DNA of 64,000 nucleotides from Chloroflexota bacterium. Lineage in GTDB: Bacteria > Chloroflexota > Limnocylindria > Limnocylindrales > CSP1-4. The position numbers were made by a program, and so were the translations under genes. Positions within the stretch are counted from its first letter, which is position 1, and every line of letters begins with the position of its first letter. The stretch lies in NCBI GenBank assembly GCA_021783095.1, contig JAJXUG010000001.1, positions 119,570 to 183,569 on the forward strand, read 5' to 3'. The notes under the pieces were generated by a model that saw only the letters and a program-made list of their open reading frames with translations, did not search any database and had not been told where the DNA came from. Shown here piece after piece: positions 19,773-45,875 of this stretch.

Positions 19773-20014
19773 CGAAGAGGCGTCCTCATCTCGTGCGAGC
19801 TGTCTCCGTCATCGTCGACGCCCCTCGGCGCCGGGGTGCTCGGCTACCACGCTCGCCGGATACGGCGCCGCCTCGGAAGGGCACGCCCGAGACGACAGTG
19901 AACCGGCGCTGCTCGGAGTGTAACAGCGGGATCAACCCGCGGCCGCGGGACGTGTCGCGGCCGCGGGACGATGGTCCCGGCATTGCAGCAGACCCAGGCA
20001 CACCGGACGCGAAG

Positions 20015-20047
20015 CGGCCCCGGGTCCGCGTGGAGCCCGGGGCCGCC
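20015..20047 (-). terminator. GC-rich hairpin (11-bp stem GCGGCCCCGGG / CCCGGGGCCGC, 11-nt loop) 16 nt downstream of the stop of the 20063-20362 gene
   Basis: Perfect inverted repeat read directly from the sequence. There is no U-tract, which is common in high-GC actinobacteria. It marks the probable end of the long minus-strand operon. Confidence 0.35.
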
Positions 20048-21168: not shown

Positions 21169-21550
21169 CGGTGGCTCCCGCTCCCCCGTCGACGCCGGGC
21201 GACATCGCGGCGAACGCCGCCATCAGCGCGGCGCGGGTGCCGCCGAAGGCTTCGGCTGCCTCGTCCGGGCTGGGGTCGGCCCGGCCGGCGAGATCGGGCT
21301 CGGTCCACACCCAGGTCGGGTGGTCGTGCGCCGCCAGCTGGCGGAAGCGCGGCGTCCAGACCTCCGCATCGACCGCGGCCAGGTGGACGACGATCCGGAC
21401 CGGCGTCCACCCGCCATCGTGTCCCGGCGCGGTCGCCGCGTCGCCCAGCCGGTGCACCATGGCGCCCGCCCACTCCGCCGCCTCGCGCAGCGCTGGCAGG
21501 AGGGCGGCGACCTCGGCCCTGGGACCGGGCACCGCGTCGGGCATCGTCAC
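21161..21550 (-). CDS. Small hypothetical protein (about 129 aa), weakly DinB/MDMPI-N-like, translationally wedged between the MttB-family gene and iclR
   Basis: GTG at 21550 overlaps the mttB-family stop (GTGA); an alternative ATG is at 21544. Its 3' end overlaps the iclR start by 8 nt. Coding-like codon bias, no recognisable motif. Confidence 0.4.
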   Translation of the reverse strand: MTMPDAVPGPRAEVAALLPALREAAEWAGAMVHRLGDAATAPGHDGGWTPVRIVVHLAAVDAEVWTPRFRQLAAHDHPTWVWTEPDLAGRADPSPDEAAEAFGGTRAALMAAFAAMSPGVDGGAGATDG

Positions 21551-23088
21551 TCCGCCGCGTCGGGCATCGACGCCTTGCGGCGCGCGACGAAGTCCAGCAG
21601 CGCCTCGTCCACCGCGGGGTCGATGGCCGGCGCCTCGTACTCGGCGAGCATCTTCTTCCAGACCCGGTTGGCCCGCGCCCGGGCGTCAAGCTCGCCGTCC
21701 TCGAGCCACTGCTCGTAGCTGTTGTTGTCGGCGATCTCGGAACGGTAGAACGCGGTCTCGAAGTTCGCCAGGGTGTGCGCCGTGCCCAGGAAGTGCTGCC
21801 CCGGGCCGTTCTCGCGGATGGCGTCGAGCGCCTGCCCGTTCTCGGACAGGTCCACGCCCTTGGCGAACACGCTCATCATCCCGAGCTGGTCCGCGTCCAT
21901 GACGAGCTTCTCGTAGCCGATCGTCAGGCCGCCCTCGAGCCAGCCGGCGGCGTGGAGGACGAAGTTGGTGCCGGCGAGGACCGTGGGCTGGAGCGTGGCC
22001 GCGGACTCGTAGGCCGCCTGCGCGTCCTCGATCTTCGACGCGGTCAGGCTGCCGCCGGAGCGGAACGGGACGCCGAGTCGGCGGGCGAGCGCGGCCATCG
22101 TGTACAGGACGAGCGCGGGCTCCGGGGTGCCGAACGTGGGCGCACCCGACTGCATCGACATCGAGCTCGCGAAGGAGCCGAGGATCACCGGCGCCCCGGG
22201 GCGCACCAGCTGGGCGAGCGTCATGCCTCCCAGCGCCTCGGCCAGCGTCTGCGCCGCCACGCCGGCGGAGGTCACCGGCGCCATCGCGCCGGCCAGGATG
22301 AACGGGGTGACGAGGCAGGCCTGGTTCGCCGCGGCGTAGGTGCGCAGCGAGCCCAGCATCGTGGCGTCCCAGACCAGCGGCGAGTTCGCGTTGATCAGGC
22401 TGGTGACGACCGCGTTCTGGTCGACGAAGTCCGCGCCGAACACGATCTTCGCCATCTCGACGGTGTCGGCGGCGCGCTCGGGCGCCGTGACCGAGCCCAT
22501 GAACGGCTTGTCCGAGTAGCGGATGTGGGCGTAGACCATGTCGAGGTGGCGCTTGTTGACGGCCACGTCGGTGGGCTCGCACACCGTGCCACCCGAGTGG
22601 TGCAGATGCGGCGAGGCGTAGGCGAGCTTGACGAAGTTCTCGAAGTCCTGGAGCGTCGCGTAGCGTCGGCCGCCGTCGAGGTCGCGCACGAACGGCGAGC
22701 CGTAGTTGGGCGCGAAGACCGTGTTCATCCCGCCGATCGTCACGCTGCGCTCAGGGTTCCGAGCGTGCTGCACGTAGGTGCGCGGGGCGCTCGCCTGGAC
22801 GATGGAGCGGCACAGCCCGGCCGGGAACCGGACGCGCTCGCCCTGGACATCTGCGCCGGCGCCGCGCAGCAGGCGCAGCGCCTCCGGGTCGCCGCGGAAC
22901 TCGAGGCCCACCTCCTGGAGGATCACGTCGGCGTTGTGCTCGATGAGCGAGAGGCCCTCCTCGGAGAGCACCTCGAACGGCGCCATGGTCCGGGTGAGGA
23001 ACGGGAGGCGTGCCACGGCGGCATGGGCGCGGGCCGCCTGCCGCCCGGCACGACCGCCGCTGCGGCGGTTGTGGAGATCGTCGGTCAT
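21547..23088 (-). CDS. MttB-superfamily (trimethylamine-methyltransferase-like) quaternary-amine:corrinoid methyltransferase, non-pyrrolysine type (MtgB/MtcB/MtpB-like)
   Basis: 513-aa TIM-barrel MttB family. The frame is continuous with no in-frame amber codon, so it is a non-Pyl member. ATG at 23088 lies 3 nt after a perfect AGGAGG (revcomp of ttcctcctcg at 23091-23100). The 1031-aa ORF is an over-extension. Confidence 0.85.
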   Translation of the reverse strand: MTDDLHNRRSGGRAGRQAARAHAAVARLPFLTRTMAPFEVLSEEGLSLIEHNADVILQEVGLEFRGDPEALRLLRGAGADVQGERVRFPAGLCRSIVQASAPRTYVQHARNPERSVTIGGMNTVFAPNYGSPFVRDLDGGRRYATLQDFENFVKLAYASPHLHHSGGTVCEPTDVAVNKRHLDMVYAHIRYSDKPFMGSVTAPERAADTVEMAKIVFGADFVDQNAVVTSLINANSPLVWDATMLGSLRTYAAANQACLVTPFILAGAMAPVTSAGVAAQTLAEALGGMTLAQLVRPGAPVILGSFASSMSMQSGAPTFGTPEPALVLYTMAALARRLGVPFRSGGSLTASKIEDAQAAYESAATLQPTVLAGTNFVLHAAGWLEGGLTIGYEKLVMDADQLGMMSVFAKGVDLSENGQALDAIRENGPGQHFLGTAHTLANFETAFYRSEIADNNSYEQWLEDGELDARARANRVWKKMLAEYEAPAIDPAVDEALLDFVARRKASMPDAAE

Positions 23089-25124
23089 CGTTCCTCCTCG
23101 TCGGCGGCGACGGGCTGGCGCCGCCGACGTCGTTCCGTTCGCTCGTCCCAGCCCGCGCGGCCCGCCACCGGCCGTGCCGGCAATTCGACGACTCGCGCCA
23201 GGTTCGGGTATTCGGCACTGCGGTGCGGGATCGCCAGCGCGTCGACGAAGTGCTCCTGGAATCGGGGCTCGATCGCGGTCTCGAGCTTGTGGACCTCGCG
23301 CACGACGGTCTCGATCTCGCGGCGGGCGGCGCCCGACAGCAGCGCGATGAGGGCCCCGGCGCCCGCAGCGTTGCCCACCGAGCGGACGCGCGCGAGGTCG
23401 CAGTCGGGCACCAGGCCCAGCACCATGGCATGGGTCGTGTCGATGTGGCTGCCGAAAGCGCCCGCGAGGCGGACCTCGTCCACCGCGTCCACGCCGTAGG
23501 CGTCCATCAGCAGCCGGGCGCCAGCGTAGAGGGCTGCCTTCGCGAGCTGGACGGCCCGCACGTCGCTCTGGGTGACCACGACGCACGGCTCGCCCTCGTG
23601 GAGGACATAGGCGAAGGTGCGCCCGTCGGGGATCACGCGCTGCGTGCGGGCTGCCAGCGCCCCGTCGATGATCCCGTCCGCGGTGATGACGCCCGCGAGG
23701 AACAGCTCGGCGATCACCTCGATGATCCCCGAGCCGCAGATGCCGGTGATCCCGGTGCCGGCCGTGGCCTCGGCGAAGCCGGGCTCGTCGGACCACAGCG
23801 CCGAGCCGATGACGCGGAAGCGCGGCTCGAGGGTGTCGCGGTCGATGCGGACGCGCTCGACGGCGCCGGGCGCGGCGCGCTGGCCGGACGAGATCTGCGC
23901 GCCCTCGAAGGCGGGGCCGGTGGGGCTCGAGGCGGCGAGCAGGCGGTGCCGGTTGCCCAGCACGAGCTCCGCGTTGGTCCCCACGTCCACGATGAGCGTG
24001 ACGGCCTCGGCGAGGTGCGGCTGCTCGGAGAGGATGACGCCGGCCGTGTCGGCGCCGACGTGCCCGGCGATGCAGGGCAGGACGTAGACGCGGGCCCCGG
24101 GGTGGACGCCGAGCTTGAGCTCGGCGGCGGTGGCGTGGACCGCGCGCTCCGTCGCCAGCGTGAACGGCGCCTGGCCGAGCGGCGTCGGGTCGAGGCCCAG
24201 CACGAGGTGGTGCATGATCGGGTTGCCGACCAGCGCGATCTCGAGGATCTCGTCGCGCGCCACGCCGGCCGCGATGGCCAGGCTGCCGATGAGGTCGCGC
24301 AGCGCCGTCCGGACCGCGGCGGTCATCTCGGCCGCGCCCCGCTCGTGGAGCATCGCGTACGAGACGCGGCTCATCAGGTCCTCGCCGAACCTGATCTGCG
24401 GGTTCATCACGCCGGCCGAGGCCAGCACCGACCCGTCGAGCAGGCTGGCCAGGTGGGCGGCAATCGTGGTCGACCCGATGTCCACCGCCACGCCGTACGC
24501 GCGGTCGCGGAAGCCCGGCCACGCGGCGATCAGCGTCCGCCCGTCGTGGACCGCGACCGTCACCTTGCCGCCGCCGCTCTCGACCGCGGCCTGGAGCGCG
24601 CGCGTCGCCGCGAGGTCCGCACCGAGGTCGTGGATCCCCCACTCGCGGGCCAGCGCCTCCTGCACCCGGGCGAGGTCCGAGGCCGGCGAAGCCAGGTCCG
24701 GCAGGGCGGCCTCGACGTAGTGGAGCCGGGTGACCGGGTCGAGGTCGAACGGGCGGACCTCGAGCTCCTTGCGCACCACCTGGCGGTGGACCTGGGAGCT
24801 GGCCGGCACGTCGATGACCGCGTCGCCCAGCAGCTCGGCCGTGCAGGCGAGCCGGCGCCTGGGCGCCAGGCCCTTGCGCGCCGCGTAGTCGGCCTCCACC
24901 GCGTCGGGCGCCGAGATGTGCGCCGGATCCGAGGCGATGCCGTGCTTGGGGAACGCGCCGACGCTCTGCTCCACCTGGCAGCGGCCGCAGATGCCCCGGC
25001 CGCCGCAGACCGAATCGATGTCCACGCCCAGCTTCCGGGCCGCGTCGAGCACGGTCGTGCCCGCGGGGAAGTGCCCCCGGCGGCCCGAGGGCGTGAAGAT
25101 CAGCAGGGGATCGGGCGATCCCAC
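23085..25124 (-). CDS. Corrinoid reductive activase (RACo-type: N-terminal plant-type [2Fe-2S] ferredoxin plus ASKHA ATPase/DUF4445)
   Basis: CGGRGICGRCQV...C ferredoxin cysteine pattern at the N-terminus. Large ASKHA-fold C-terminal domain with VDIGSTTIAAHL and VDVGTNAELVLG phosphate loops. Its stop overlaps the MttB start (ATGA at 23085-23088). Confidence 0.85.
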   Translation of the reverse strand: MGSPDPLLIFTPSGRRGHFPAGTTVLDAARKLGVDIDSVCGGRGICGRCQVEQSVGAFPKHGIASDPAHISAPDAVEADYAARKGLAPRRRLACTAELLGDAVIDVPASSQVHRQVVRKELEVRPFDLDPVTRLHYVEAALPDLASPASDLARVQEALAREWGIHDLGADLAATRALQAAVESGGGKVTVAVHDGRTLIAAWPGFRDRAYGVAVDIGSTTIAAHLASLLDGSVLASAGVMNPQIRFGEDLMSRVSYAMLHERGAAEMTAAVRTALRDLIGSLAIAAGVARDEILEIALVGNPIMHHLVLGLDPTPLGQAPFTLATERAVHATAAELKLGVHPGARVYVLPCIAGHVGADTAGVILSEQPHLAEAVTLIVDVGTNAELVLGNRHRLLAASSPTGPAFEGAQISSGQRAAPGAVERVRIDRDTLEPRFRVIGSALWSDEPGFAEATAGTGITGICGSGIIEVIAELFLAGVITADGIIDGALAARTQRVIPDGRTFAYVLHEGEPCVVVTQSDVRAVQLAKAALYAGARLLMDAYGVDAVDEVRLAGAFGSHIDTTHAMVLGLVPDCDLARVRSVGNAAGAGALIALLSGAARREIETVVREVHKLETAIEPRFQEHFVDALAIPHRSAEYPNLARVVELPARPVAGRAGWDERTERRRRRQPVAADEEER

Positions 25125-25139
25125 GTCGGGGCTCGGGCC

Positions 25140-26057
25140 TCAGCCGGCGGTGACCGCGGCACCCGCCCGGCGCCGGTTGACGCGCCGCTCGCGGCCGTCG
25201 GCCGCCTCGCCGGTGGGATCCCGGTTGGCGCGGATCCAGGCGGCGGCGTCGGCGTCGTTGCCGAGTAGCACGTCGGCGGCCATGATCGATTTGCGCACGT
25301 CGGGCAGCAGCGGGTTGGTGATCGCCGAGGTCAGGCCGTTGCTGATGGCCATGGCCAGGAACGCCGAGTTGACCCCCTCGCGGGCCGGCAGGCCGAAGCT
25401 GACGTTCGAGGCGCCGCAGGTGGTGTTCACCTTGAGCTCGTCGCGCAGCCGGTTGAGCAGGGCGAACACCTGGCGGCCGGCGGTGCGCATGGCGCCGATG
25501 GGCATGACCAGCGGGTCCACGATCACGTCCTCGCGCGGGATGCCGTGGTCGGCGGCGCGCTCGACGATCCGCTTGGCCACCGCGAACCGCACGTCCGGGT
25601 CGGTCGAGATGCCCGTGTCGTCGTTGGAGATGGCGACCACTGCCGCGCCGTACTTGCGGACCAGCGGCAGGACGCGCTCCATGCGCTCCTCCTCGCCGGT
25701 CACCGAGTTGACCAGCGCCTTGCCCTGGTAGACCGAGAGTCCCGCCTCGAGCGCGTCCATGACCGACGAGTCGATCGACAGCGGCAGGTCGGTCAGCGAC
25801 TGGACCAGCTTGACCGTGCGGGCGAGGATCCCGGGCTCGTCCGCGAGCGGGATGCCCGCGTTGACGTCGAGCATGTGGGCGCCGGCCTCGACCTGGGCGA
25901 TGACGTCGCGCTCGACCCGGCTGAAGTCGCCGTTGCGCATCTCCTCGCCCAGGAGCTTGCGCCCGGTGGGGTTGATCCGCTCGCCGATGACCACGAACGG
26001 GAGGTCACCGCTGATGACCACCTCGCGGGTCGCCGAGCTGATGACGGTGCGGGTCAT
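25140..26057 (-). CDS. Pterin-binding (DHPS-like TIM barrel) methyl-corrinoid:tetrahydrofolate methyltransferase (MtgA/MtqA/AcsE-like MT2)
   Basis: FVVIGERINPTG...DVNAG...LSIDS...ALVNSV...ISND pterin-binding domain pattern (PF00809-like), 305 aa. Overlaps the upstream DUF1638 gene by 4 nt. Confidence 0.8.
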   Translation of the reverse strand: MTRTVISSATREVVISGDLPFVVIGERINPTGRKLLGEEMRNGDFSRVERDVIAQVEAGAHMLDVNAGIPLADEPGILARTVKLVQSLTDLPLSIDSSVMDALEAGLSVYQGKALVNSVTGEEERMERVLPLVRKYGAAVVAISNDDTGISTDPDVRFAVAKRIVERAADHGIPREDVIVDPLVMPIGAMRTAGRQVFALLNRLRDELKVNTTCGASNVSFGLPAREGVNSAFLAMAISNGLTSAITNPLLPDVRKSIMAADVLLGNDADAAAWIRANRDPTGEAADGRERRVNRRRAGAAVTAG

Positions 26058-26902
26058 GGGGCCTCCGTGGGGACTGGCGCCGGGGATGCGGTCGGCGTGG
26101 CGGGTGGTGCGGCCGCGAAGCCGCGGCTGGCGGTGAGCGCAGCGAGGCGCGCGCGGGGGAACTCGGCTTCGATCCGCAGGGGCAGCATCGCCTTGGCCGT
26201 GCGGCGGCCCTCCTTGGCCGCCACTCCTGCCTCGGCCTGCTCGCGCCCTTCGCCCGCCTTCCTCGCGGGCCCGCCGGCCAGACGCGCCATCGCGCTGCCG
26301 AGCTCGCCGTAGCCCGTCGGCCGATGCTCGAACGCCAGCCCGAGCCGGACGGCCGCCCGGCGCGCCAACTCGAGGACTTCCGGGTCGTCATGCTGCGATA
26401 GGTAGACCACGCGCTGATAGCCCGCGAAGTACACAGGCAGCAACTCCGGGTGGCGGTCGAGCCCGAGGCCGCGGACCACGAGCGCCTCGAAGCTGCGGGC
26501 CAGGAAGTCGGTCAGGTAGAAGGTCCCGGGCTCCTCGGCCGCCAGCGCGGCGAACTCGGCGAGTCCCGTGAAGGTGGCGTAGCAGTGGGCGCCCGGCAGC
26601 CGATCAGCGCCGTGCCTGGCCAGCACCGTGTCGAGCGCACCGGCCGTGCCGCAGTCGGCGTACGCCACGAACACCCGGTCGTAGCCGTCCGCGAGCTGAG
26701 CGAGCTTCGCGTCGACCGCTGGCGCAATCTGCTCCGGGCGGTTGTGGAGCTGCGCGGGCAGGCAGCGCACGTCGACGGCCCCGGCCAGCCCGTTGCGCTC
26801 GACGAGCTCGAGCAGCTCGCGGGCGAGCGCGCCGCAGCCCACGACGAGCGTCGGGGCGAGGGCTTCGGAGGACGCCGTCGGCCGGAGCCCGCGATCGGTC
26901 AT
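26054..26902 (-). CDS. DUF1638 domain protein (accessory protein recurrently linked to corrinoid methyltransferase systems)
   Basis: Start MTDRGLRP at 26902, overlapping the corrinoid-protein stop (ATGA). C-terminal Ala/Pro-rich tail. The 528-aa ORF from 27640 runs in a different frame over the corrinoid gene and is an artefact. Confidence 0.65.
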   Translation of the reverse strand: MTDRGLRPTASSEALAPTLVVGCGALARELLELVERNGLAGAVDVRCLPAQLHNRPEQIAPAVDAKLAQLADGYDRVFVAYADCGTAGALDTVLARHGADRLPGAHCYATFTGLAEFAALAAEEPGTFYLTDFLARSFEALVVRGLGLDRHPELLPVYFAGYQRVVYLSQHDDPEVLELARRAAVRLGLAFEHRPTGYGELGSAMARLAGGPARKAGEGREQAEAGVAAKEGRRTAKAMLPLRIEAEFPRARLAALTASRGFAAAPPATPTASPAPVPTEAP

Positions 26903-27576
26903 GCGACGAACTTGCGGGCCGTTTCTGCCGCGATCGCGGCGTCGCGGCAGTAGGCGTCGGCACCGACCGCCATCGCGAACTCCTCGTTGAGCGGCGCGCC
27001 GCCCACGAGGACCACGTACTTGTCGCGGATGCCGCGGTCCTTGAGCGCCTGGATCACGACCTTCATGTACGGCATCGTGGTCGTCAGCAGCGCGGACATG
27101 CCGAGGATGTCGGCCTTGTGCTCCTCGAGCGCGGCCAGGAACTTGTCGGCGTCCGTGTTGACGCCGAGGTCGACGACGTCGAAGCCGGCGCCCTCGAGCA
27201 TCATCCCGACCAGGTTCTTGCCGATGTCGTGGATGTCCCCCTTCACGGTGCCGATGACGACCTTGCCGACCGGCTTGGCGCCCGTCTCGGCGAGCAGCGG
27301 GCGGAGCACCGCCATGCCGGCCTTCATCGCGTTGGCGGCGAGCAGCACCTCGGGGACGAACAGGATCCCGTCGCGGAAGTCGACGCCGACGATGCGCATG
27401 CCCTCGACGAGCGCCTCGGCCAGCACCTTGTCCGCGCCCCAGCCTCGCCCGAGGAGGACCTTCGTGCCCTCGACCGTCTCGGGCGCGAGCCCGTCGTAAA
27501 GGTCGTCGTGCATCTGGCTGACCAGTTCCTCGTCGCTCAGCGAGGCGAGGTCGAGTTCCTGCTCGTCGGTTCCCAT
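26899..27576 (-). CDS. Cobalamin-binding corrinoid protein (MtgC/MttC-like; B12-binding cap plus Rossmann domain)
   Basis: DxHxxG motif GDIHDIGKN with downstream SALLTTT and GGA motifs. 225 aa from MGTDEQ (27576); the 323-aa ORF is over-extended. Confidence 0.85.
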   Translation of the reverse strand: MGTDEQELDLASLSDEELVSQMHDDLYDGLAPETVEGTKVLLGRGWGADKVLAEALVEGMRIVGVDFRDGILFVPEVLLAANAMKAGMAVLRPLLAETGAKPVGKVVIGTVKGDIHDIGKNLVGMMLEGAGFDVVDLGVNTDADKFLAALEEHKADILGMSALLTTTMPYMKVVIQALKDRGIRDKYVVLVGGAPLNEEFAMAVGADAYCRDAAIAAETARKFVA

Positions 27577-27946
27577 TGGCTCCTGCCGGTGACGCTGTGT
27601 AGCGGATGGCGCAACGAGTTGCGGATTGCGCAACGGACAATAGACGAGAGCCGCGGCTCTGTCCAGACGGTATCGCGCTGCGGGCGGTCGCTGGGTGCGC
27701 GAGCCGGACGATCCGGGCGTCGGTTCGATCGCGCTGGCGTCGCCGGGATCCTCCGCATCGCGCGCCGCTCCCGATCGGATCCTCCAGATCGCCTCCGGGG
27801 GGCGCTTCGCCCCGTCGGCCAGATTGGCGGGCGCCTGCTCGTGCGTGAGCCGGCCGACGCTGGCGCCCATATCGCCTGCCGGGGGCGATTTGGCGGGATT
27901 CGCTTGGCTAAGCGCCGCCGAGAGGCGAAATGGCGGGGGCGGTGCG

Positions 27947-28010
27947 GCGCGGAGCCCGCACGCGGCGCGGAGCCCGCACGCGGCGCGGAGCCCGCACGCG
28001 GCGCGGAGCC
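27947..28010. repeat. Tandem repeat, 18-bp unit GCGCGGAGCCCGCACGCG x 3.6, inside a 470-bp intergenic region
   Basis: Three perfect head-to-tail copies at 27947-27964, 27965-27982 and 27983-28000, plus a 10-nt partial fourth copy. Read directly from the sequence. Confidence 0.7.
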
Positions 28011-28046
28011 TGGACGCCGAGCTTCGCGCCCAGGTGCGACGGGCCG

Positions 28047-28724
28047 CTAGGCGGCGGGGACGGAGTCGCCGCCTCGGTCGGCCGCCGAGAGGCGCTCCTC
28101 CGTGTACCGGTAGTGGGCGGCGACCGCGTCCGTTGCGCGCTGCGGATCCCGGGCCCCGATGGCGTCGGCGATGTGGCGGTGGACCTCGACGGGCGGAATC
28201 CAGGCGAGCGATGACCGCGTCGCCACCGCGGTCCGCATCAGCAGGACGGTCTGGGACGCCAGCTGCTCGAAGACCGCCAGGAGGCGGCCGTTGCCGGACA
28301 GCCGGCAGTAGCTGCGGTGGAACTCCATGTCGGCGTCCCAGGCTGCGGCGAGGTCGGGGCCCCGGTAGGCGTCCTCGACCACCTCGAGGGCCGCCCTGAG
28401 GTCGGTGAGCTCCTCGTCGGTGGCGTGGGAGATCGCGAGCCGCACCGCGACCTCCTCGATCGCCCGGCGGATGACGTACACCTCGTTGAGATCGGCCTCG
28501 GTCAGGCTGCTGACGAACGTCCCGCGTCGGGGAAGGTCAACTGCGAGACCCGTGCGGGCGAGCTCGGTGAGGGCGTCCCGGATAGGCCCGCGCGAGACGC
28601 CGAATCGGTCCGCGAGCTCGGTCTCGACCAGTCTCGAGCCCGCAGGAAGGCGCCCCTCGAGAATCTCGTCGCGCAGCTGGTCCGCAACTGCCTGCCAGAG
28701 TTGCTTGTGGTCGATCGTGGCCAT
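28047..28724 (-). CDS. GntR-family transcriptional regulator (FadR subfamily with FCD effector domain)
   Basis: wHTH (LVETELADRFGVSRGPIRDALTELARTGL) plus an all-helical C-terminal FCD-like domain. Divergent from the DMGO-like gene. Confidence 0.85.
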   Translation of the reverse strand: MATIDHKQLWQAVADQLRDEILEGRLPAGSRLVETELADRFGVSRGPIRDALTELARTGLAVDLPRRGTFVSSLTEADLNEVYVIRRAIEEVAVRLAISHATDEELTDLRAALEVVEDAYRGPDLAAAWDADMEFHRSYCRLSGNGRLLAVFEQLASQTVLLMRTAVATRSSLAWIPPVEVHRHIADAIGARDPQRATDAVAAHYRYTEERLSAADRGGDSVPAA

Positions 28725-28777
28725 CGGCTCCCAGCTTTCGCAGCGGTCACGAGCCGCGCGTCTCGCTCGCCAGATTG

Positions 28778-28804
28778 ACTGTTGACAGAAAGATTGTCAA
28801 CAGT
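28778..28804. promoter_or_regulatory. Perfect 10-7-10 inverted repeat ACTGTTGACA-gaaagat-TGTCAACAGT in the gntR/dmgO divergent promoter region (candidate GntR operator; contains TTGACA)
   Basis: Exact inverted repeat in an AT-richer stretch between gntR (start 28724) and the DMGO-like gene (start 28996). Flanked by direct repeats GATTGAC/GATTGTC. Confidence 0.5.
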
Positions 28805-28995
28805 TAGCGTCCCAGCATCGCCAGTCGGCGCGACTTGCGTCCCGTCGCCTCGGCGGCGACCCGTGACAAACGGACCTTGGTTTCGATAAGCGGCTCGGAT
28901 CGTCCCCCGGCGCCTTGCCGGAGCCCCGCCGCCTCATCTCGCGCGCGCCCTACGTCGCCGTCGATCGGTGTCCACACCCAAGGAGCAAGCTCCAC

Positions 28996-31524
28996 ATGGC
29001 CACGTTCCCGTCCAGCGCCAAGGTCGTGATCATCGGCGCCGGCATCGTCGGCAACAGCATCGCCTACCACTTGGCGAAGCTGGGCTGGACGGACATCGTC
29101 CAGATCGACAAGGGCCCGCTCCCGAACCCCGGCGGCTCCACCGGCCACGCGTCGAACTTCATCTACCTGGCCGATCACAACAAGGAGATGGCGGAGCTCA
29201 CGCTCGAGTCCGCTCGCCAGTACCGCGAGTGGGACGTCTACACGACGTGCGGCGGCCTCGAGGTCGCCCGGTCGGAGACTCGTCTCGAGGAGCTCCGGCG
29301 CAAGGTGGACTCGGCGAAGAACTGGGGCATCAACGCCTACATGGTGACCCCGGCCGAGATCAAGGAGATGGTCCCGTTCATCAACGAGGAGATCCTCGTC
29401 GGCGGGTTCTTCACGCCCGAGACGGGCGTCTGCGACTCGCTCCAGTTCGGCACCCTCTGCCGCGAGAAGGCCGAGGCGATGGGCGCGCTCCAGAGCTTCG
29501 CCAACACCGAGGTCACCGCGATGGGGGTCGAGGACGGCCGCATCAGGAGCGTGACCACCACCCGCGGCACCATCGAGGCCGAGTACGTCATCATCGCGTG
29601 CGGCGTCTGGGCGCCGCTCCTCGCCGAGATGGCCGGCGCACATATCCCGCTGACCCCGGTCGTCCACCAGATGGCCGACTACGGTCCCGTGCCGCTGTTC
29701 GAGAAGTCGTCCAAGGCGATCGAGTACCCGATCGTCCGCGACATGGACGTGCTCATGTACGAGCGCCAGGACGGCATCGGCTTCGAGGTCGGCTCGTACG
29801 CCCACCGATCGATCCTCCACGACCCGGAGGAGATCCCCTCGATCGAAGAGGCGAAGCTCTCGCCCACCGAGATGCCGTTCACGCAGGAGGACTTCGACCC
29901 CCAGCTCGAGGATGCGCTCGAGCTGTTCCCCGAGATCCTCGGCGACGAGAAGGTGGGCCAGAAGTACGCGATCAACGGCCTCATCTCGCTGACCCCCGAC
30001 GGCATGCCCGTCCTGGGCGAGACGCCCGAGGTCAAGGGCCTCTGGTCCGCCTGCGCCGTGTGGGTCAAGGAGGGCCCGGCAGTCGGCAAGTCGATCGCGG
30101 AGTGGATGACCCACGGCCAGCCCGAGATCGACTGCAACCAGAGCGACATCGCCCGCTTCCATGCGCACCAGAAGACGCGTCAGCACACCAAGGCGCGCGC
30201 CGACGAGGCGTTCCCGAAGACCTACGGCATCGTCCACCCGTCCGAGCAGTACCTCTCGGACCGGCCTGTCCGCAAGACGCCGATGTACGAGTGGCAGAAG
30301 GCGCACGGCGCCGAGTTCTTCGAGGTCGCCGGCTGGGAGCGCGCGCAGTGGTACGGCTCCAACGCGCCGCTGGTCGAGAAGTACGGCATCCAGGCCCGCC
30401 CCAACGAGTGGGACGCTCGCTGGTGGTCGCCCATCATCAACGCCGAGCACCTCGCGATGCGCGAGTCGGCGGGCCTCTTCGACCTCTCGTCGTTCGTGAT
30501 CTTCGACGTCGTCGGCGCGGGTGCGCTGGACACGGTCCAGAAGGTGTGCGTCCGGCAGATGGACGTGGCCGTGGGCCGCGTGGTCTACACGCCGGTCCTC
30601 TCGGTCACGGGCGGCTTCAAGTCCGACCTCACGGTGATGCGCCTCGCCAAGGACCACTTCCGGGTGGTCACCGGCGCCGCCCACGGCATGGCCGACATGA
30701 AGTGGTTCGCCGACAACGCGGCGGACCACACCTCGGTCATCGACCTCACCACGGCGTACACGACCATCGGCCTGTGGGGCCCGAACGCCCGCAAGATCAT
30801 CCAGAAGCTGACCCGCGCGGACATGTCCAACGCGGCCTTCAAGTTCGGCACCTGCAAGACCATCGAGGTCGGCAGCCAGCTTGCCCTCGCCTCGCGCATC
30901 AGCTACGTCGGCGACCTGGGCTGGGAGCTCTACGTCCCGATGGAGCAGGGCCAGCGACTCTGGGACGAGCTCTGGGAGGCCGGGCAGGAGTTCGGCATCA
31001 CCGCCTGCGGGATCGCGGTCTACGTGGGCACGGGCCGCCTCGAGAAGGGCTTCCGCGCCTACGGCACCGAGCTCGACAACGACTACAACCCGGTCGAGGC
31101 GGACATGCTGACGCCCCGGCTCAAGGCCCAGGACTTCATCGGTCGCGCGGCCCTGGAGCAGGCCCTGGGCGAGGAGCGGGCCGCCGTCTGCTGCACGCTC
31201 ACCGTGGACGACCACACGTCGTCGCGGACCGGCGAGAAGCGCTACCCGCTGGGCCGCCAGCCGATCGTGACCCCCGACGGCGCGCCGATCACGGACAGCA
31301 AGGGCCGCCAGTCCTACGCCAACTCGGCGGGCATGGGCCCGTCCCTCGGCAAGTACCTCATCCTGAGCTACCTGCCGCCCGAGCACGCGGTCGAGGGCAC
31401 CAAGCTCGCCGTCCAGTACTTCGGCGACCTCTACCCGGTCACCGTGGCCCGCGTCGGCTCCAAGCCGCTGTTCGACCCCGAGAACGATCGCGTCCGCGGC
31501 ATCGAGCCCGCGGCGGCGGGCTGA
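28996..31524 (+). CDS. Dimethylglycine oxidase/dehydrogenase family protein (FAD-dependent oxidoreductase fused to a GcvT-like tetrahydrofolate-binding domain), paralogue 1
   Basis: N-terminal FAD fingerprint VVIIGAGIVGNSIAYHLAKLG...GGSTGHAS and a C-terminal aminomethyltransferase (GcvT) fold, 842 aa. AAGGAG is 11 nt upstream of ATG 28996. Confidence 0.9.
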   Translation: MATFPSSAKVVIIGAGIVGNSIAYHLAKLGWTDIVQIDKGPLPNPGGSTGHASNFIYLADHNKEMAELTLESARQYREWDVYTTCGGLEVARSETRLEELRRKVDSAKNWGINAYMVTPAEIKEMVPFINEEILVGGFFTPETGVCDSLQFGTLCREKAEAMGALQSFANTEVTAMGVEDGRIRSVTTTRGTIEAEYVIIACGVWAPLLAEMAGAHIPLTPVVHQMADYGPVPLFEKSSKAIEYPIVRDMDVLMYERQDGIGFEVGSYAHRSILHDPEEIPSIEEAKLSPTEMPFTQEDFDPQLEDALELFPEILGDEKVGQKYAINGLISLTPDGMPVLGETPEVKGLWSACAVWVKEGPAVGKSIAEWMTHGQPEIDCNQSDIARFHAHQKTRQHTKARADEAFPKTYGIVHPSEQYLSDRPVRKTPMYEWQKAHGAEFFEVAGWERAQWYGSNAPLVEKYGIQARPNEWDARWWSPIINAEHLAMRESAGLFDLSSFVIFDVVGAGALDTVQKVCVRQMDVAVGRVVYTPVLSVTGGFKSDLTVMRLAKDHFRVVTGAAHGMADMKWFADNAADHTSVIDLTTAYTTIGLWGPNARKIIQKLTRADMSNAAFKFGTCKTIEVGSQLALASRISYVGDLGWELYVPMEQGQRLWDELWEAGQEFGITACGIAVYVGTGRLEKGFRAYGTELDNDYNPVEADMLTPRLKAQDFIGRAALEQALGEERAAVCCTLTVDDHTSSRTGEKRYPLGRQPIVTPDGAPITDSKGRQSYANSAGMGPSLGKYLILSYLPPEHAVEGTKLAVQYFGDLYPVTVARVGSKPLFDPENDRVRGIEPAAAG

Positions 31525-31526
31525 GC

Positions 31527-32291
31527 ATGCGCGTTCTCGTCTGCGTCAAGCGCGTCCCGGCCGTCGCCGGGCGCCTCACCCTCACCGAGGACGAGCGCGC
31601 CCTCGACACCAAGTACGTGGGGTTCCAGGTGGGGCCCCACGAGGAGTGCGCGGTCGAGGAGGCCGTCCGGCTGGTCGAGGCGCACGGCGGTGAGGCCGTC
31701 GTGCTCACCCTGGGTCCGGCCGAGGCCGTCGAGCAGCTGCGCGAGGCCATGGCCATCGGCGCTGCGCGCGCGATCCACCTCGTCACCGACGGCGGCGACT
31801 GGGACGCCGAGTCCACGGCGGGCGCCATCGTCGACGCGATCGGCGAGGATGAGGCCGCGAACGGCCCGTTCGACCTCGTCCTGGTGGGCAACGAGGCCGC
31901 CGACTCCGGCGGCTACCAGGTGGGCGCCCGCATCGGGCGCGCGCTCGGCCGGCCCGTCGTGACCGGGATCAAGGCGCTGTCCGTCGCCGATGGCACCGCC
32001 CGGTGCGAGCAGGAGTCCGGCGGCGGGCGCGACGTCTACGAGGTCCGGACGCCGGCCGTGGTCGCGGTGCTCGAGGGAATCAACCTCCCGCGCTACCCGT
32101 CCGTTCCCGGGCGCATCCGCGCCAAGTCGAAGCCCGTCGCTTCATCCTCGCCCGCCCGCCCGGCGCAGCGCCTCGAGCTGCGGCGCCTGGTCGTGCCGGT
32201 CACGGAGGCCAAGCAGGCGCAGGTGCTGGGCAAGGGCGCCGCGGCGGCGCCGGCCGTGGTCGAGCTCCTGGCCAGCGTGGGGGTGCTCTAG
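31527..32291 (+). CDS. etfB: Electron transfer flavoprotein beta subunit
   Basis: MRVLVCVKRVP...L.DE......N....ALE.A..L family pattern. ATG is 2 nt after the upstream stop. Confidence 0.9.
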   Translation: MRVLVCVKRVPAVAGRLTLTEDERALDTKYVGFQVGPHEECAVEEAVRLVEAHGGEAVVLTLGPAEAVEQLREAMAIGAARAIHLVTDGGDWDAESTAGAIVDAIGEDEAANGPFDLVLVGNEAADSGGYQVGARIGRALGRPVVTGIKALSVADGTARCEQESGGGRDVYEVRTPAVVAVLEGINLPRYPSVPGRIRAKSKPVASSSPARPAQRLELRRLVVPVTEAKQAQVLGKGAAAAPAVVELLASVGVL

Positions 32292-32293
32292 CC

Positions 32294-33256
32294 ATGGCCA
32301 CCGTCCTCGTCCTCATCACCACCGCAGACGGCGCGCCCGACAAGGTGGCGCTCCAGGCCCTCGCCCTGGGCTCCCAGCTCGCGGCGGGCGGGGCCGTCCA
32401 CGCCCTCGTCCTCGGTGACGACGCCGTCGCGGCCGGGCTCGGCGCGTGGGGGGCGACCAACGTCCACCTGGCCAGGCATCCGGCACTCGACGTGCCTGCG
32501 CCCGATGCTGCGGCGCGCATCCTCGACGACCTCGCCGGTTCTCTCGGCGCGCAGTTCGTGGTGGGCCCCGGCACCGAGGAGGGCAACACGATCCTCGCCC
32601 GCAGCGCCGCCCGCGCCGGCCTGCCGTTCGCCGCCAACTGCGTCTCCGTGACAGCCGGCTCGCCGGTCGCCGTCACGCGGAGCCGGTGGGGCGGCAGCCT
32701 CCTCGAGGAGGCGGTGATCAACGCCGACCGGGCCGTCCTCACGGTCGCCGCGCACGTCATCGAGGCCGTCGAGTCCGGCGGCTCCGCGTCCGTGACACCG
32801 TTCACGCCGCAGCTTGACGACGCGGACCTCGCCGTTCGGGTGGTCGGTCGCGTCCCGGCACCGGCCGGCGGCGTGTCGCTCACCGACGCCAAGGTGGTCG
32901 TGGCCGGCGGACGCGGTGCCGGTTCCGCCGAGGGGTTCGCCCCGATCGTGGAGCTCGCCTCGCTGCTCGGGGCGGCCGTCGGCTGCTCCCGCGCGGTGAC
33001 GATCGCCGGCTGGCGCCCGCACACCGAGCAGGTCGGGCAGACCGGCACCAAGATCGCCCCCGACCTGTACATCGCGGCCGGGATCTCAGGCGCCACGCAG
33101 CACCTCGCCGGGACCAAGGGCGCCAAGAGGATCCTCGCGATCAACAAAGACCCCGAGGCGCCGATCATGACGGCGGCCGACTACGCGGTGATCGGGGACC
33201 TGGCCGAGGTCCTGCCCGCGATCAGCGCCGAGATCCGGCGCAGGCGCGGCGCCTGA
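32294..33256 (+). CDS. etfA: Electron transfer flavoprotein alpha subunit
   Basis: C-terminal FAD-binding region VVAGGRGAGS...PDLYIAAGISGATQHLAGTKGAKRILAINKDPEAPI. ATG is 2 nt after the etfB stop. Confidence 0.9.
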   Translation: MATVLVLITTADGAPDKVALQALALGSQLAAGGAVHALVLGDDAVAAGLGAWGATNVHLARHPALDVPAPDAAARILDDLAGSLGAQFVVGPGTEEGNTILARSAARAGLPFAANCVSVTAGSPVAVTRSRWGGSLLEEAVINADRAVLTVAAHVIEAVESGGSASVTPFTPQLDDADLAVRVVGRVPAPAGGVSLTDAKVVVAGGRGAGSAEGFAPIVELASLLGAAVGCSRAVTIAGWRPHTEQVGQTGTKIAPDLYIAAGISGATQHLAGTKGAKRILAINKDPEAPIMTAADYAVIGDLAEVLPAISAEIRRRRGA

Positions 33257-33451
33257 GCGTGTCTGCCGCCATGCCGTCCACCCGGCAACAGCGCCAGCGG
33301 GAGCGTCCCGCCGGGACGGCGCCGAGCCCGACGGTCATGGCAGTCCACACCCCTCACGCCACGAGGAGGGGCACGGCCAAGTAAGGAGGTTCGCCGCCCG
33401 CTCGGTCATCGACGACCTGCGACAAGAGTCGACATTGGAGGAGATGCGATC

Positions 33452-34798
33452 GTGATCCGTTCTGGGACGAAGTACCGGATCGCCAGTCTGGCCGCTGCGA
33501 CGGTGCTCTTGGTGAGCGCCTGCGGCGGGTCCAGTGGCTCGAGCCCCGCCGCCACCACCGCGGCGAGCACCGCGCCGAGCTCCGGCGCCAGCCAGGCGGC
33601 CGGGAGTAGCTCGGGCACAGCCGCCACCCAGACCATCAACATCGGAATCGACGGGCCGTTCACCGGCCCCTCAGCGCTCACGGGCACTGAGATGAAGAAT
33701 GCCGCCCAGATGGCCTTCGACGCCATCAACTGGCAGGTCGGCAACTACAAGATCAACCCGATCTACGTGGACGATCAGGCCGATCCGGCCAAGGGCACCG
33801 CCGCGCTCGAGCAGGCGATCGTGGGCCAGAAGCTGGTCGCCGGAATCCTGGACTGGAACAGCTCGGTCGCCGCGGCCGACATGGAGCTCACGGCCAAGTA
33901 CAAGGTCCCCTGGTTCTTCGGGATGGGGGCCGCCGGCGTCGTGAACCAGAAGTTCCTCTCGGACAAGGCCAAGTACGGCTACTGGACCTCCAAGGGCTGG
34001 CCGGACCCGGTCAAGCTGACGGCCGCGTACGTCGGCGCCATCAACGACGCCATCGCGGCGGGCACGTACACCCCCGCGTCCAAGACCGTGGCCATCTACG
34101 GCGAGGACACCGACTGGGGCCGCTCCTTTGGCAAGGGCCTCAAGGACGGCTTCACCGCCAGCGGCTGGACCATCGCGAGCGAGGACTACTTCGCCACCAC
34201 GCAGACCGACTTCTCGGCGCTGATGTCGCGCTACAAGAGCGCCAACGTGCCGGTGATCGCGGGCACGAGCACGGCCGCGGCCTCCATCACCGCCTTCATC
34301 AAGGCTGAGGATGATGCGGGCATCAAGGCCCTGACGGTCGCCGACGGCCTCGGCTGGTTCGGTGACTGGTACAAGATGACCGGCTCGTCCTCGGACTACG
34401 TCCTCGACTCCGTGCCGGGCTTCGCCACCGACAAGGCAAAGAAGTTCCAAGCCGACTACAAGGCCAAGTACGGCTCCGACCCGAGTGCCGCGGCCGCCGG
34501 CCTCTCGTACGACTGGACCAACTTCTTCATCAAGGTCCTGAACTCGACCATCACCGACCAGGGCTCCATCACCAGTGACACGCTGATGAAGGAGGCCCAG
34601 GACAAGCTTTGGACCGGCCAGCTGACCTACACCGACGGGATCATCATGTCGAGCTACGACTTCAACGCAGACTCGATCCCGGACCCCGTCGTGGGCAAGG
34701 GCCACTACATCTTCCCGGTCACCCAGTACCACACCGGCCAGCAGACCGTGATCTGGCCGGCTGACCAGGCCTCGGGCAAGCTCGAGACCAAGCCCTGA
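33452..34798 (+). CDS. ABC transporter substrate-binding lipoprotein, LivJ/Peripla_BP_6 (HAAT) family
   Basis: GTG start with GGAGGAG 8 nt upstream. Lipobox LLVSAC and a Ser/Ala/Thr-rich linker. Type-I periplasmic binding fold pattern (IGIDGPFTG...). Confidence 0.85.
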   Translation: MIRSGTKYRIASLAAATVLLVSACGGSSGSSPAATTAASTAPSSGASQAAGSSSGTAATQTINIGIDGPFTGPSALTGTEMKNAAQMAFDAINWQVGNYKINPIYVDDQADPAKGTAALEQAIVGQKLVAGILDWNSSVAAADMELTAKYKVPWFFGMGAAGVVNQKFLSDKAKYGYWTSKGWPDPVKLTAAYVGAINDAIAAGTYTPASKTVAIYGEDTDWGRSFGKGLKDGFTASGWTIASEDYFATTQTDFSALMSRYKSANVPVIAGTSTAAASITAFIKAEDDAGIKALTVADGLGWFGDWYKMTGSSSDYVLDSVPGFATDKAKKFQADYKAKYGSDPSAAAAGLSYDWTNFFIKVLNSTITDQGSITSDTLMKEAQDKLWTGQLTYTDGIIMSSYDFNADSIPDPVVGKGHYIFPVTQYHTGQQTVIWPADQASGKLETKP

Positions 34799-34864
34799 CG
34801 CCATCCGAGCAACAAGTGGGGGCCGGCATCGCGCCGGCCCCCACTGCACCTAGAGCGAGGCCCC

Positions 34865-35593
34865 ATGGCGCTCCTTGAGCTCGACGGCGTCACCAAGCGG
34901 TTCGGTGGCCTGACAGCCGTCAACAACGTCACGTTCAGCGTCGAAGAGGGCGAGATCTTCGGGCTGATCGGCCCGAACGGCGCCGGCAAGTCCACGCTGC
35001 TCAACTGCCTGGCCGGCGCGCTTCGCCCGAACGCGGGAACCGTCCGCTTCAACGGCAAGAACACGACTGGCCTTCCGGCCGACAAGATGTGCCGCCTGGG
35101 CATCGGCCGCACGTTCCAGATCCCGCGGCCCTTCCCGCGTTTGTCCGTCCTCGAGAACGTCATCGTGGCGGCGTCGTTCGGCGATCCCAGCGCCGAGCAC
35201 GGCATGGCCGCCGACCGGGCGCTCAAGATGCTCCAGTACGTGGACTTCCCGCGCCCCGTGAGCACCGTCGCCGGGCACCTCAACGCGGTCCAGCTCAAGC
35301 GGCTCGACCTCGCCCGTGCCCTGGCCAGCCGCCCCAAGCTGCTGTTCCTCGACGAATTCGCATCGGGCCTCACGCCATCAGAGCTGACGACCATCGCCGC
35401 CCTGCTGCGCAAGATCCGCGATGACGGGGTGACGATCGTGATGGTCGAGCACGTCATGCGCCTGATCCTCGACCTGTGCGAGAACCTCGCGGTCCTCCAG
35501 TACGGCGAGCTCATCGCGCACGGCAACGCCGCGACGGTGGCCCAGGACGAGAAGGTCCGCGAGGCCTATCTCGGCGCCCAATTCATCCTCTGA
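34865..35593 (+). CDS. ABC transporter ATP-binding protein (LivG-like)
   Basis: Walker A GPNGAGKST, Q-loop, signature region and Walker B LLFLDEFASGL. Confidence 0.9.
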   Translation: MALLELDGVTKRFGGLTAVNNVTFSVEEGEIFGLIGPNGAGKSTLLNCLAGALRPNAGTVRFNGKNTTGLPADKMCRLGIGRTFQIPRPFPRLSVLENVIVAASFGDPSAEHGMAADRALKMLQYVDFPRPVSTVAGHLNAVQLKRLDLARALASRPKLLFLDEFASGLTPSELTTIAALLRKIRDDGVTIVMVEHVMRLILDLCENLAVLQYGELIAHGNAATVAQDEKVREAYLGAQFIL

Positions 35594-35621
35594 GCGGCCA
35601 GGGAGGCTCCAGGGAGACATC

Positions 35622-36326
35622 GTGCTCAAACTGACCGCTGTCGAAGCCGGCTACGACCTCCTGCAGGTCCTGTGGGGCGTGGACCTCCACGTCGAGGAGG
35701 GCGAGTTCGTCGCCATCCTGGGACCCAACGGTGCCGGCAAGACCACCACCCTGCGCTCGATCGCGGGCTTCGTGCCGCCGATCCACGGCTCGGTCACGTT
35801 CCGGGGCAAGGAGCTGCGCGGCACCCTCCCGCATCAGGTCAGCCGGATCGGCATCGGCTACGTGTCCGAGAGCCTGAACCTGTTCCCCTCGATGTCGGTC
35901 TACGAGAACCTGCTCGTGGGCGCCTACACGGTCAAGGACAAGAGCGCTGTCGCCGCCACGATGGACACGGTCTTCGAGCTCTTCCCGCGACTGCTCGAGC
36001 GCAAGGACCAGCTGGCGGGCACCCTCTCGGGCGGCGAGCGCAAGATGCTCGCGATCGGCCGCGGCCTGATGCCCAGGCCTTCGCTGCTGCTCGTGGACGA
36101 GCCGAGCCTGGGCCTGGCCCCGATCCCCACGCTCGCGACGTTCGAGGCGCTCAAGACGCTGCGCGAGCGGGGCATGACGATCCTGCTGGTGGAGCAGAAC
36201 GTGAACACGACGCTCCGGATCGTGGACCGCGCATACGTCCTCGAGCAGGGCCGCGTCGTCCTCGAGGGGACCGGCGATGAGCTGCTCGGCAACACCCATG
36301 TCCAGGAAGCGTACCTGGGGATCTGA
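35622..36326 (+). CDS. ABC transporter ATP-binding protein (LivF-like)
   Basis: Walker A GPNGAGKTT, signature LSGGERKMLAIGRGL and Walker B LLLVDEPSLGL. Confidence 0.9.
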   Translation: MLKLTAVEAGYDLLQVLWGVDLHVEEGEFVAILGPNGAGKTTTLRSIAGFVPPIHGSVTFRGKELRGTLPHQVSRIGIGYVSESLNLFPSMSVYENLLVGAYTVKDKSAVAATMDTVFELFPRLLERKDQLAGTLSGGERKMLAIGRGLMPRPSLLLVDEPSLGLAPIPTLATFEALKTLRERGMTILLVEQNVNTTLRIVDRAYVLEQGRVVLEGTGDELLGNTHVQEAYLGI

Positions 36327-36335
36327 GGCAGACCG

Positions 36336-38422: not shown

Positions 38423-38473
38423 CCACCGGGCCGAGCCGGCCAGCAGGCCGGTGTGAACGGAGGGCACCGCGCC

Positions 38474-43333: not shown

Positions 43334-43412
43334 CGTGACTCCGTGGCAATTCTGGCGCAAGATCGGCTGCTTCCGCCGAGCGCCTCGCGGGGATTCTGCG
43401 CCGTCGGCCGTG

Positions 43413-45827: not shown

Positions 45828-45875
45828 GGTGCCTCCTCCTCCCGCGCGCGGGCGGGTTCCTCGTCGCCCCTGTGC

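Follow-up and report, generated by a model that had tools for sequence, protein, structure and literature searches.

How might the expression of a FadR-type regulator gene and of the divergent DMGDH-like operon beside it be governed from the 271 bp that separate them? This question is raised by the intergenic gap at 28725-28995 of the window (the whole 64-kb stretch of Chloroflexota DNA analysed here), which extends between the ATG of gntR (28724, minus strand) and the ATG of a DMGDH-like gene (28996, plus strand). The gap contains an inverted repeat that a preliminary description had proposed as the site through which the GntR protein controls both itself and the divergent operon. The genes concerned are the following:

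21168-20359, minus strand: IclR-type regulator, end of the MttB operon
21547-27870, minus strand: corrinoid/MttB genes downstream of gntR (gene starts approximate; presumed co-transcription with gntR)
28047-28724, minus strand: gntR, 225-aa GntR protein of the FadR subfamily, wHTH plus FCD domain (PF00392 + PF07729)
28996-31524, plus strand: DMGDH/DMGO-like flavoenzyme (DAO + FAO_M + GCV_T + GCV_T_C), first gene of the divergent operon
31521-39712, plus strand: etfB, etfA, Liv/Urt-type ABC transporter and DadA-like FAD oxidoreductase (putative extent of the operon)
49200-48595, minus strand: BetI-type TetR

The closest solved relative of the DMGDH-like gene is the dimethylglycine oxidase from Arthrobacter, and the ABC transporter encoded behind etfBA comprises a binding protein, two ATPases and two permeases. 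On the other side, gntR is followed by genes for a B12-binding corrinoid protein, a DUF1638 protein, a methyl-THF:corrinoid methyltransferase, a RACo/AcsV-like activase and a non-Pyl MttB-family methyltransferase. The latter has 4yyc as its closest PDB entry (E 1e-222), the glycine betaine methyltransferases 2qne and 9yce being matched at about 1e-126. Further right there are three more DMGDH-like paralogues behind the BetI-type TetR, as well as a GMC oxidoreductase. On account of these family assignments the gene island looks like a pathway from a quaternary amine (probably glycine betaine) to dimethylglycine and sarcosine, and then towards glycine. The gntR transcript very probably carries the corrinoid/MttB methyltransferase operon as well, and the regulon is probably wider than was first described. 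Related to this, mttB genes are often found adjoining GntR genes (PMC9303578).

The inverted repeat of the intergenic region

The repeat and the boxes that are discussed in the following sections are located as follows:

28778-28804, unstranded: inverted repeat ACTGTTGACA-GAAAGAT-TGTCAACAGT (from sequence and shuffles)
28793-28804, unstranded: box O1, ATTGTCAACAGT (reverse complement ACTGTTGACAAT), invariant in 13/13 related loci
28778-28789, unstranded: box O2, ACTGTTGACAGA, inverted second copy, degenerate in other lineages
28967-28978, unstranded: candidate auxiliary box O3, GGTGTCCACACC (core TGTCCACA), weak evidence

Read on the plus strand, the repeat consists of a left arm at 28778-28787, a spacer of 7 nt and a right arm at 28795-28804, and it sits 54-80 bp upstream of the gntR ATG. 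The two arms of 10 nt are 100% complementary, so the perfect 10-7-10 repeat reported previously is confirmed by the sequence reading, and also by a shuffle test: when up to 3 mismatches are allowed the dyad occurs once in the 64-kb window and in none of 100 dinucleotide-preserving shuffles. When arms of 10 nt or more and spacers of up to 20 nt are required, the window contains 17 perfect inverted repeats, and the dyad is the only one of them with an arm GC content of 40% or less (40%), the other 16 being 80-100% GC. An AT-rich repeat of this size was produced by 0 of 100 shuffles. The surroundings of the dyad (28750-28839) show a GC content of 0.55 versus about 0.72 for the whole window, in agreement with the locally AT-richer stretch that had been noticed before.

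The hexamer TTGACA is found on both strands, at 28782-28787 on the plus strand and as the reverse complement of 28795-28800 on the minus strand. Besides, the direct repeats GATTGAC (28773-28779) and GATTGTC (28792-28798) are present; both overlap the dyad, however, and do not flank it in the way that had been stated. Only the second one is conserved: in the relatives GATTGTC is kept, and it borders box O1 on the left, whereas GATTGAC is not conserved and coincides with the candidate -10 element of the gntR promoter.

A search for further dyads, suggested in the preliminary description, was run across the 64-kb window and yielded no further copy. Neither were copies of the box found elsewhere in the window, where ANTGTNNACANT occurs a single time and the 12-mer, at up to 3 mismatches, is no more frequent than expected by chance.

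Conservation of the repeat in related loci

At E <= 1e-20, 396 relatives of the GntR protein were found, the top 120 of which share 68% identity or more with it; a metagenome scan with the same protein returned one locus only. The set used for comparison comprises 15 loci that represent 13 distinct sequences from about nine lineages of Chloroflexota/Binatia, with GntR identities of 66-95%. In every locus spanning the region gntR is divergent from the DMGDH-like/etfBA unit, and each locus contains exactly one dyad, always within the gap between gntR and the DMGDH-like gene.

When the sequences are anchored and read in the gntR sense, the 14-mer TAACTGTTGACAAT is invariant, with 13/13 at each position, and two more positions are invariant on the DMGDH side (A at -4 and G at -2). 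The TGTCAA of the second arm is likewise invariant in all 13 sequences. The information content of the core is 1.75-1.80 bits per column versus 0.47-0.57 in the flanks, whose sequence cannot be aligned. On the other hand, the full core of O2, TGTTGACA, is present only in the window lineage, L002, L003 and L012, and elsewhere the gntR-proximal arm is reduced to its TTGACA, as CGTTGACA or CCTTGACA, which is the case in many lineages. As O1 is invariant and the gntR-proximal arm is often nothing but TTGACA, conservation is asymmetric between the two boxes.

The corrinoid/MttB gene order after gntR is also found in L006, L007, L010, L011 and L012; in L008, L013 and L014 further DMGDH-like paralogues stand in the place where the corrinoid/MttB/IclR string would be, and the dyad accompanies the gntR/DMGDH-like pair in these three loci too. 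L008 and L013 show in addition a duplicated control region, located between two other DMGDH-like paralogues. This duplicate keeps AACTGTCGACAAT with the perfect palindrome TGTCGACA, which fits the FadR-subfamily consensus exactly, and it has lost both the second arm and the TA of the -10 element assigned to the DMGDH-like operon. That the palindrome of the box is retained where the second arm and the TA are lost argues for the box, and not the -35 hexamer, as the conserved unit.

The GntR protein and the operators catalogued for its subfamily

The recognition helix of the window GntR is VSRGPIRDA (residues 43-51), and the wing Gly together with E34, R45 and R49 are present, these three residues having the same numbering as in Atu1419. 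The wHTH domain is 44% identical, ungapped, to that of PhnR_REU2, and the top NCBIfam match of the protein is phnR_burk (TIGR03338) with 124.2 bits, below the equivalog cutoff of 271.5. Assignment as a PhnR equivalog was rejected given this score and the neighbouring genes, which are the DMGDH-like/ETF/ABC and corrinoid/MttB genes and include no phosphonate set. As the score lies under the cutoff, the motif can be transferred by similarity of the DNA-binding domain only, and it appears from the sequences that DNA-binding specificity alone is shared with PhnR.

The operator consensus of the FadR subfamily is NyGTM-N0-1-KACNy (PMC4494728). The S1 File of the same study lists 12-bp predicted sites of the form ATTGTYRACAAT for the PhnR and PrpR orthologous groups, the PhnR groups being those of Burkholderia, Cupriavidus, Polaromonas and Verminephrobacter; the predicted sites include ACTGTTGACAAT (six entries), ATTGTCAACAGT, ATTGTTGACAAT and ATTGTCGACAAT (PMC4494728). 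PhnR/PrpR-type predicted sites are often located in divergons with the regulator gene (PMC4494728), and in the FadR subfamily it is common for a divergon to contain double sites. The PhnR/PrpR-type recognition helix, [VIT]SRGP[VIL]RE, is matched by VSRGPIRD of the window protein.

Box O1 is a 12-bp FadR-type pseudo-palindrome, A.TGT..ACA.T, a pattern that occurs once in the window against 0.08 occurrences expected. Its core TGTCAACA (GT-CA-AC) belongs to the N0 class and is one central base off the M/K rule of the FadR consensus. The sequence features expected of a FadR-type operator are found together at this site: the core itself, the divergon with a GntR+FCD gene, conservation relative to the flanks and compatible wHTH residues.

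Candidate divergent promoters

The promoter elements that can be proposed for the gap, named P_dmg for the DMGDH-like operon and P_gntR for gntR, are the following:

28782-28787, plus strand: candidate -35 TTGACA of P_dmg, invariant in all loci
28805-28810, plus strand: candidate -10 TAGCGT of P_dmg, 17 nt past its -35
28795-28800, minus strand: candidate -35 TTGACA of P_gntR, inside O1 (from conservation)
28772-28777, minus strand: candidate -10 CAATCT of P_gntR, 17 nt past its -35

Both candidate -35 hexamers match TTGACA at 6/6 positions, one on each strand, and are invariant in all loci. In the relatives P_dmg reads TTGACA-17/18-TA[GA]C[ACG]T in 13/13 loci, with the T, A, C and T of the -10 invariant, and the -10 of P_gntR reads GATCCT, CATTCT, TATTCT or AATCCT at 16-18 nt. 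The general form nA[AT][TC]CT is present at this distance on the gntR side in 12/13 loci, L012 being the one with no recognisable gntR -10. In L006, L010 and L011 the called ATG of gntR lies about 8 nt past the candidate -10 hexamer, which suggests from the sequence that the gntR mRNA may be leaderless there.

A strict consensus scan for promoters and terminators over 28400-29300 called no promoter, as the candidate -10 hexamers agree with the consensus at no more than 2-3 of 6 positions, so that the promoters are assigned from cross-lineage conservation only. The TA..C.T conserved on the right of O1 is not mirrored on the left of this box, and a -10 element would explain this better than a contact made by a symmetric dimer. 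The arrangement inferred from conservation is that of two candidate interdigitated divergent promoters of the sigma-70 type, with the boxes covering the candidate -35 and the spacer of both; the earlier remark that the dyad overlaps a -35 element would accordingly hold on both strands. TTGACA is also intrinsic to the transcription-factor motif in Proteobacteria, and hence the hexamers need not be -35 elements.

An explanation of the repeat by promoters only has to be considered at this point, namely that two overlapping promoters with consensus -35 hexamers create the symmetry by themselves and that there is no transcription-factor site. It would account for the conservation of both TTGACA hexamers and both -10-like hexamers at 16-18 nt, and also for the lack of conservation of O2 outside its TTGACA. 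It is nevertheless quite unlikely, as invariant bases extend beyond the hexamers (AT at 28793-28794, CA and GT at 28801-28804, in 13/13 loci) and the invariant 12-mer is identical to catalogued sites of the FadR subfamily. Moreover, the duplicate of L008 and L013 keeps the 12-mer with TCGACA, that is to say with a worse -35 and a better palindrome.

One dimer site or two boxes

The dyad had been described as the site of one bound dimer. Its proposed role as an operator stands, but the 27 bp are better read, as far as the sequences indicate, as two inverted 12-bp FadR-type boxes, O1 and O2, of which one is invariant. Each arm is a predicted complete dimer site of a known type, because it matches the catalogued 12-bp boxes and because the Atu1419 dimer occupies a 10-bp site. 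The 10-7-10 symmetry arises because two copies of a box with an asymmetric centre (TC|AA) are mutually inverted. O1 is predicted to be the primary binding site of GntR and O2 a weaker or auxiliary one; since O2 is degenerate in most lineages, binding to two sites may be lineage-specific. The centres of both boxes are 15-16 bp apart, which places them roughly on opposite faces of the helix.

That the whole 10-7-10 dyad is a single operator, each arm being a half-site of one dimer, seems very unlikely. The symmetry is certainly perfect in the window lineage, but the spacer between the arms is not fixed: it measures 7 nt in the window, L001, L003, L005, L012 and L014, 8 nt in L002, L006-L008, L010, L011 and L013, and 9 nt in the duplicated copy of the control region. 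The outer positions of the arms are conserved on one side only. Besides, each arm is by itself a full GT-N2-AC pseudo-palindrome, and its size corresponds to that of the sites of FCD dimers, which measure 10 bp (Atu1419) or 12 bp (the catalogued ones).

The candidate box O3 is located just upstream of the RBS of the DMGDH-like gene (AAGGAG, 28980-28985). It is present only in the window lineage, its counterpart in L005 being TGTCTACA.

Other regulators and RNA elements

The dyad could also belong to another local regulator, for instance to the IclR-type protein or to the BetI-type TetR. The window, L006, L007, L011 and L012 all keep an IclR-type gene as the last one of the cluster, and the BetI-like TetR is encoded nearby. 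This assignment is highly improbable: the dyad is kept in L008, L013 and L014, where no IclR/MttB gene adjoins gntR within the DNA fetched, and the motif agrees with the GntR/FadR consensus as well as with the recognition helix of the window GntR. The IclR-type protein is a less likely binder, given that the dyad stays with gntR in the loci without an adjoining IclR gene.

A role at the RNA level, as a hairpin, terminator or riboswitch stem, can be practically discarded, since the 10-bp stem that could form in RNA has no T-run and no terminator call in the scan of 28400-29300, is not matched in a permissive Rfam scan of 28000-29800 that left the intergenic region empty, is located between divergent genes and ahead of the two transcription starts predicted for them, and has arms conserved by sequence instead of by compensatory change. 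A sub-threshold sRNA-Xcc1 match inside gntR was taken as chance. An RNA element in the 5' leader of the DMGDH-like gene was also considered using RNAalifold with five loci, and it was rejected because the covariation term was positive, which is unfavourable, and a large number of pairs were broken.

Proposed control of the divergent operons

The dyad is most probably a set of GntR repressor boxes placed on overlapping divergent promoters, which would make the gap a compact two-way control region. The proposal that it is the operator of the adjacent FCD-type GntR for its own gene and for the DMGDH-like operon is supported by the footprint conserved in all loci recovered, by the 12-mer, which is also catalogued for FadR-subfamily regulators sharing this recognition helix, and by its position over candidate -35 and spacer elements of the two promoters. 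In the mechanism proposed here, the GntR protein (28724-28047) would bind O1 as a dimer and, in the window lineage, would probably bind the inverted O2 too. P_dmg would read rightwards into the DMGDH-like/etfBA/ABC transporter genes, and P_gntR leftwards, through gntR and then the corrinoid/MttB methyltransferase genes. O1 would serve at the same time as the -35 of P_gntR and as the P_dmg spacer just upstream of its -10; O2 would serve as the -35 of P_dmg and as the spacer of P_gntR. Because the boxes are interleaved with both promoters, the bound repressor would shut RNA polymerase out of both of them. The expected outcome is negative autoregulation of gntR and its co-transcribed genes together with repression of the DMGDH-like/etfBA/ABC unit, and the repressor would be released once an effector occupies its FCD domain.

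The effector may well be an N-methylated glycine (dimethylglycine or sarcosine, for example), and possibly betaine or a folate derivative. Dimethylglycine and sarcosine are favoured over betaine because the DMGDH-like gene, and not mttB, is common to all loci with the dyad, whereas a folate derivative is kept among the candidates because of the Atu1419 precedent.

A more elaborate version of this control is conceivable although unlikely. According to it the gap would be a symmetric bidirectional switch, in which a polymerase at one promoter excludes the other and the repressor balances the operon for betaine demethylation by MttB against the DMGDH/ETF operon; an Atu1419-like tetramer could then loop across about 180 bp to a weak box at 28969-28976, and could sense a folate C1 derivative and not the amine substrate.

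Novelty and relevance

Simple repression by GntR from O1 and O2, as preferred above, is conceptually a small gain. The box sequence, catalogued in other lineages, is already known, as are the divergon layout and the autoregulation, all of which are textbook matters for a FadR-type GntR. What is new is the host lineage, the regulated genes (DMGDH/MttB clusters) and the tidy interdigitation with two candidate promoters. In full-text searches of the literature no GntR/FCD regulator with a described operator was found for DMGDH or MttB-type clusters, and nothing directly relevant was found on a GntR regulator of dimethylglycine or sarcosine or on mapped promoters from Chloroflexota.

The locus provides a candidate regulator-operator pair for widespread uncultured soil Chloroflexota, the orthologous GntR having several hundred close metagenome relatives. 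The genes that this pair would govern look like a complete pathway by which a quaternary amine (probably glycine betaine) is converted to dimethylglycine and then led towards glycine; it combines DMGDH-like dehydrogenases linked to ETF with a methyltransferase system of the MttB family that depends on a corrinoid. With the operator motif the regulon could be followed through complete MAGs, and the repressor/operator pair is a candidate biosensor part for methylated glycines.

Comparison with known systems

Parallels in layout are Tn10 tetR/tetA and bioA/bioBFCD from E. coli, in which a repressor on one or more palindromic operators shuts overlapping divergent promoters, including autoregulation. 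They differ from the window in the repressor families (TetR and BirA), in operator sizes and in spacings. With regard to metabolism, the genes of betaine, dimethylglycine and sarcosine catabolism are controlled by GbdR and SouR (Pseudomonas), BetI and GbsR, which respond to those metabolites; these proteins belong to the AraC, TetR and MarR families, unlike the window GntR.

The operators of the PhnR/PrpR type from Beta- and Gammaproteobacteria (Suvorova et al. 2015, PMC4494728) share with the window the same 12-bp box, ATTGTYRACAAT, the N0 class and the SRGP[VIL]RE helix. However, the phylum differs, and the genes under PhnR/PrpR control are those of phosphonate or methylcitrate metabolism, whereas in the window they are the DMGDH-like/ETF/ABC and corrinoid/MttB genes; the proteobacterial sites are themselves mostly computational predictions.

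The repressor PmiR/PrpR from Pseudomonas aeruginosa protects two adjacent sites at the prpB promoter, both of them required for binding (PMC9728974). Like the window GntR it is a member of the FadR subfamily, but its sites are about 26 bp apart, its effector is 2-methylisocitrate and the pathway is another one (PMC9728974).

Finally, Atu1419 from Agrobacterium fabrum (FCD/VanR-type GntR, PDB 6z74) is a distant homologue of the window GntR (E 2e-11). Its dimer was crystallised on the 10-bp site ATGTATACAT (TGT-N2-ACA), in which the G of the TGT triplet is read by Arg45; one site of Atu1419 is situated between -35 and -10 in a divergent promoter pair, and the protein controls a tetrahydrofolate-dependent demethylation pathway (PMC7797058). 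Atu1419 is a tetramer that loops sites 190 bp apart, with 5,10-methylene-THF as the proposed effector (PMC7797058), whereas the centres of the two boxes of the window are 15 bp apart.

Duplication of the control region

The control region, that is, the candidate GntR boxes (predicted 12-bp FadR-type operators) together with the two overlapping divergent candidate promoters between gntR and the DMGDH-like gene, is found a second time in two of the related loci compared with the window:

L008, 11345-11385, and L013, 11345-11385: paralogous version of the entire region, partly decayed, reading AACTGTCGACAAT...GGTGTCGCGG...CAATCG

In both loci this copy is placed between two other divergent DMGDH-like genes. 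Because the similarity runs on into the flanking GC-rich sequence, the comparison suggests that the promoter-operator module and the gene were duplicated as one.

Leaders of the divergent transcripts

A -10-like GATCCT precedes the called gntR start codon by about 8 nt in L006, L010 and L011 (around 7985-8003). This spacing implies that the predicted gntR mRNAs of these lineages would be leaderless, whereas in the window lineage gntR is preceded by a leader of about 40 nt that includes a GGGAG Shine-Dalgarno sequence. Two elements are located on the other side, within the 5' leader predicted for the DMGDH-like gene:

28863-28876 (+): conserved block GTGAC[AC]AA[CT]GG[AC]CC
28967-28978: GGTGTCCACACC, with the core TGTCCACA (one mismatch to the box core), directly upstream of the DMGDH-like ribosome-binding site

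The conserved block, about 50-60 nt past the predicted transcription start of the DMGDH-like gene, is also present in L001, L005, L003 and L012 and is limited to lineages with a long DMGDH-like leader; for this leader, no convincing structure with covarying pairs emerged from RNAalifold. L001 and L005 retain the core of the second element, as TGTCCACA or TGTCTACA, and the other lineages lack it. GGTGTCCACACC may act as a weak additional box, at a distance of about 180 bp from the main ones, or may be a chance occurrence; by our own estimate, the chance expectation of TGTNNACA in the leader is roughly 1%.

Other sequence features

34815-34845: perfect inverted repeat, GC-rich, with nested arms of at least 10 nt, between the stop of the substrate-binding-protein gene (34798) and the gene for the first ABC ATPase (34865)
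28249-28307 (-): Rfam match to sRNA-Xcc1, within the gntR coding sequence
L012, 4451-7726 (-): DMGDH-like gene called as a 1091-aa product with an additional ETF (EtfB-like) domain

The inverted repeat may form an intercistronic hairpin stabilising or attenuating the binding-protein transcript. Comparable GC-rich repeats are found at 19936-19967 and 20014-20046 of the window. The sRNA-Xcc1 match (30.3 bits, E 0.009) is below the gathering score of 53 and is most likely due to chance, and the L012 product reflects either a genuine fusion of DMGDH with EtfB or an assembly fault (missed stop or frameshift).

Gene content of the island

40817-49200 (-) and 51962-53857 (-): three further, consecutive DMGDH-like paralogues (DAO/FAO_M/GCV_T), behind a BetI-type TetR regulator, and a GMC (choline-dehydrogenase-like) oxidoreductase close to them
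21547-27870 (-): gene string headed by gntR, encoding a corrinoid protein, DUF1638, a methyl-THF:corrinoid methyltransferase, a RACo/AcsV-like activase and a non-Pyl MttB-family methyltransferase

The window is a large island of methylated-amine catabolism and contains at least three regulators (GntR, IclR-type and TetR). The region upstream of the three paralogues yielded no further GntR box. As for the gntR-headed string, its composition points to a putative corrinoid-dependent quaternary-amine demethylation system adjoining ETF-linked DMGDH-like enzymes in Chloroflexota; the closest PDB entry to its MttB-family methyltransferase is 4yyc (E 1e-222), and MtgB (2qne) matches it with E 1e-126.
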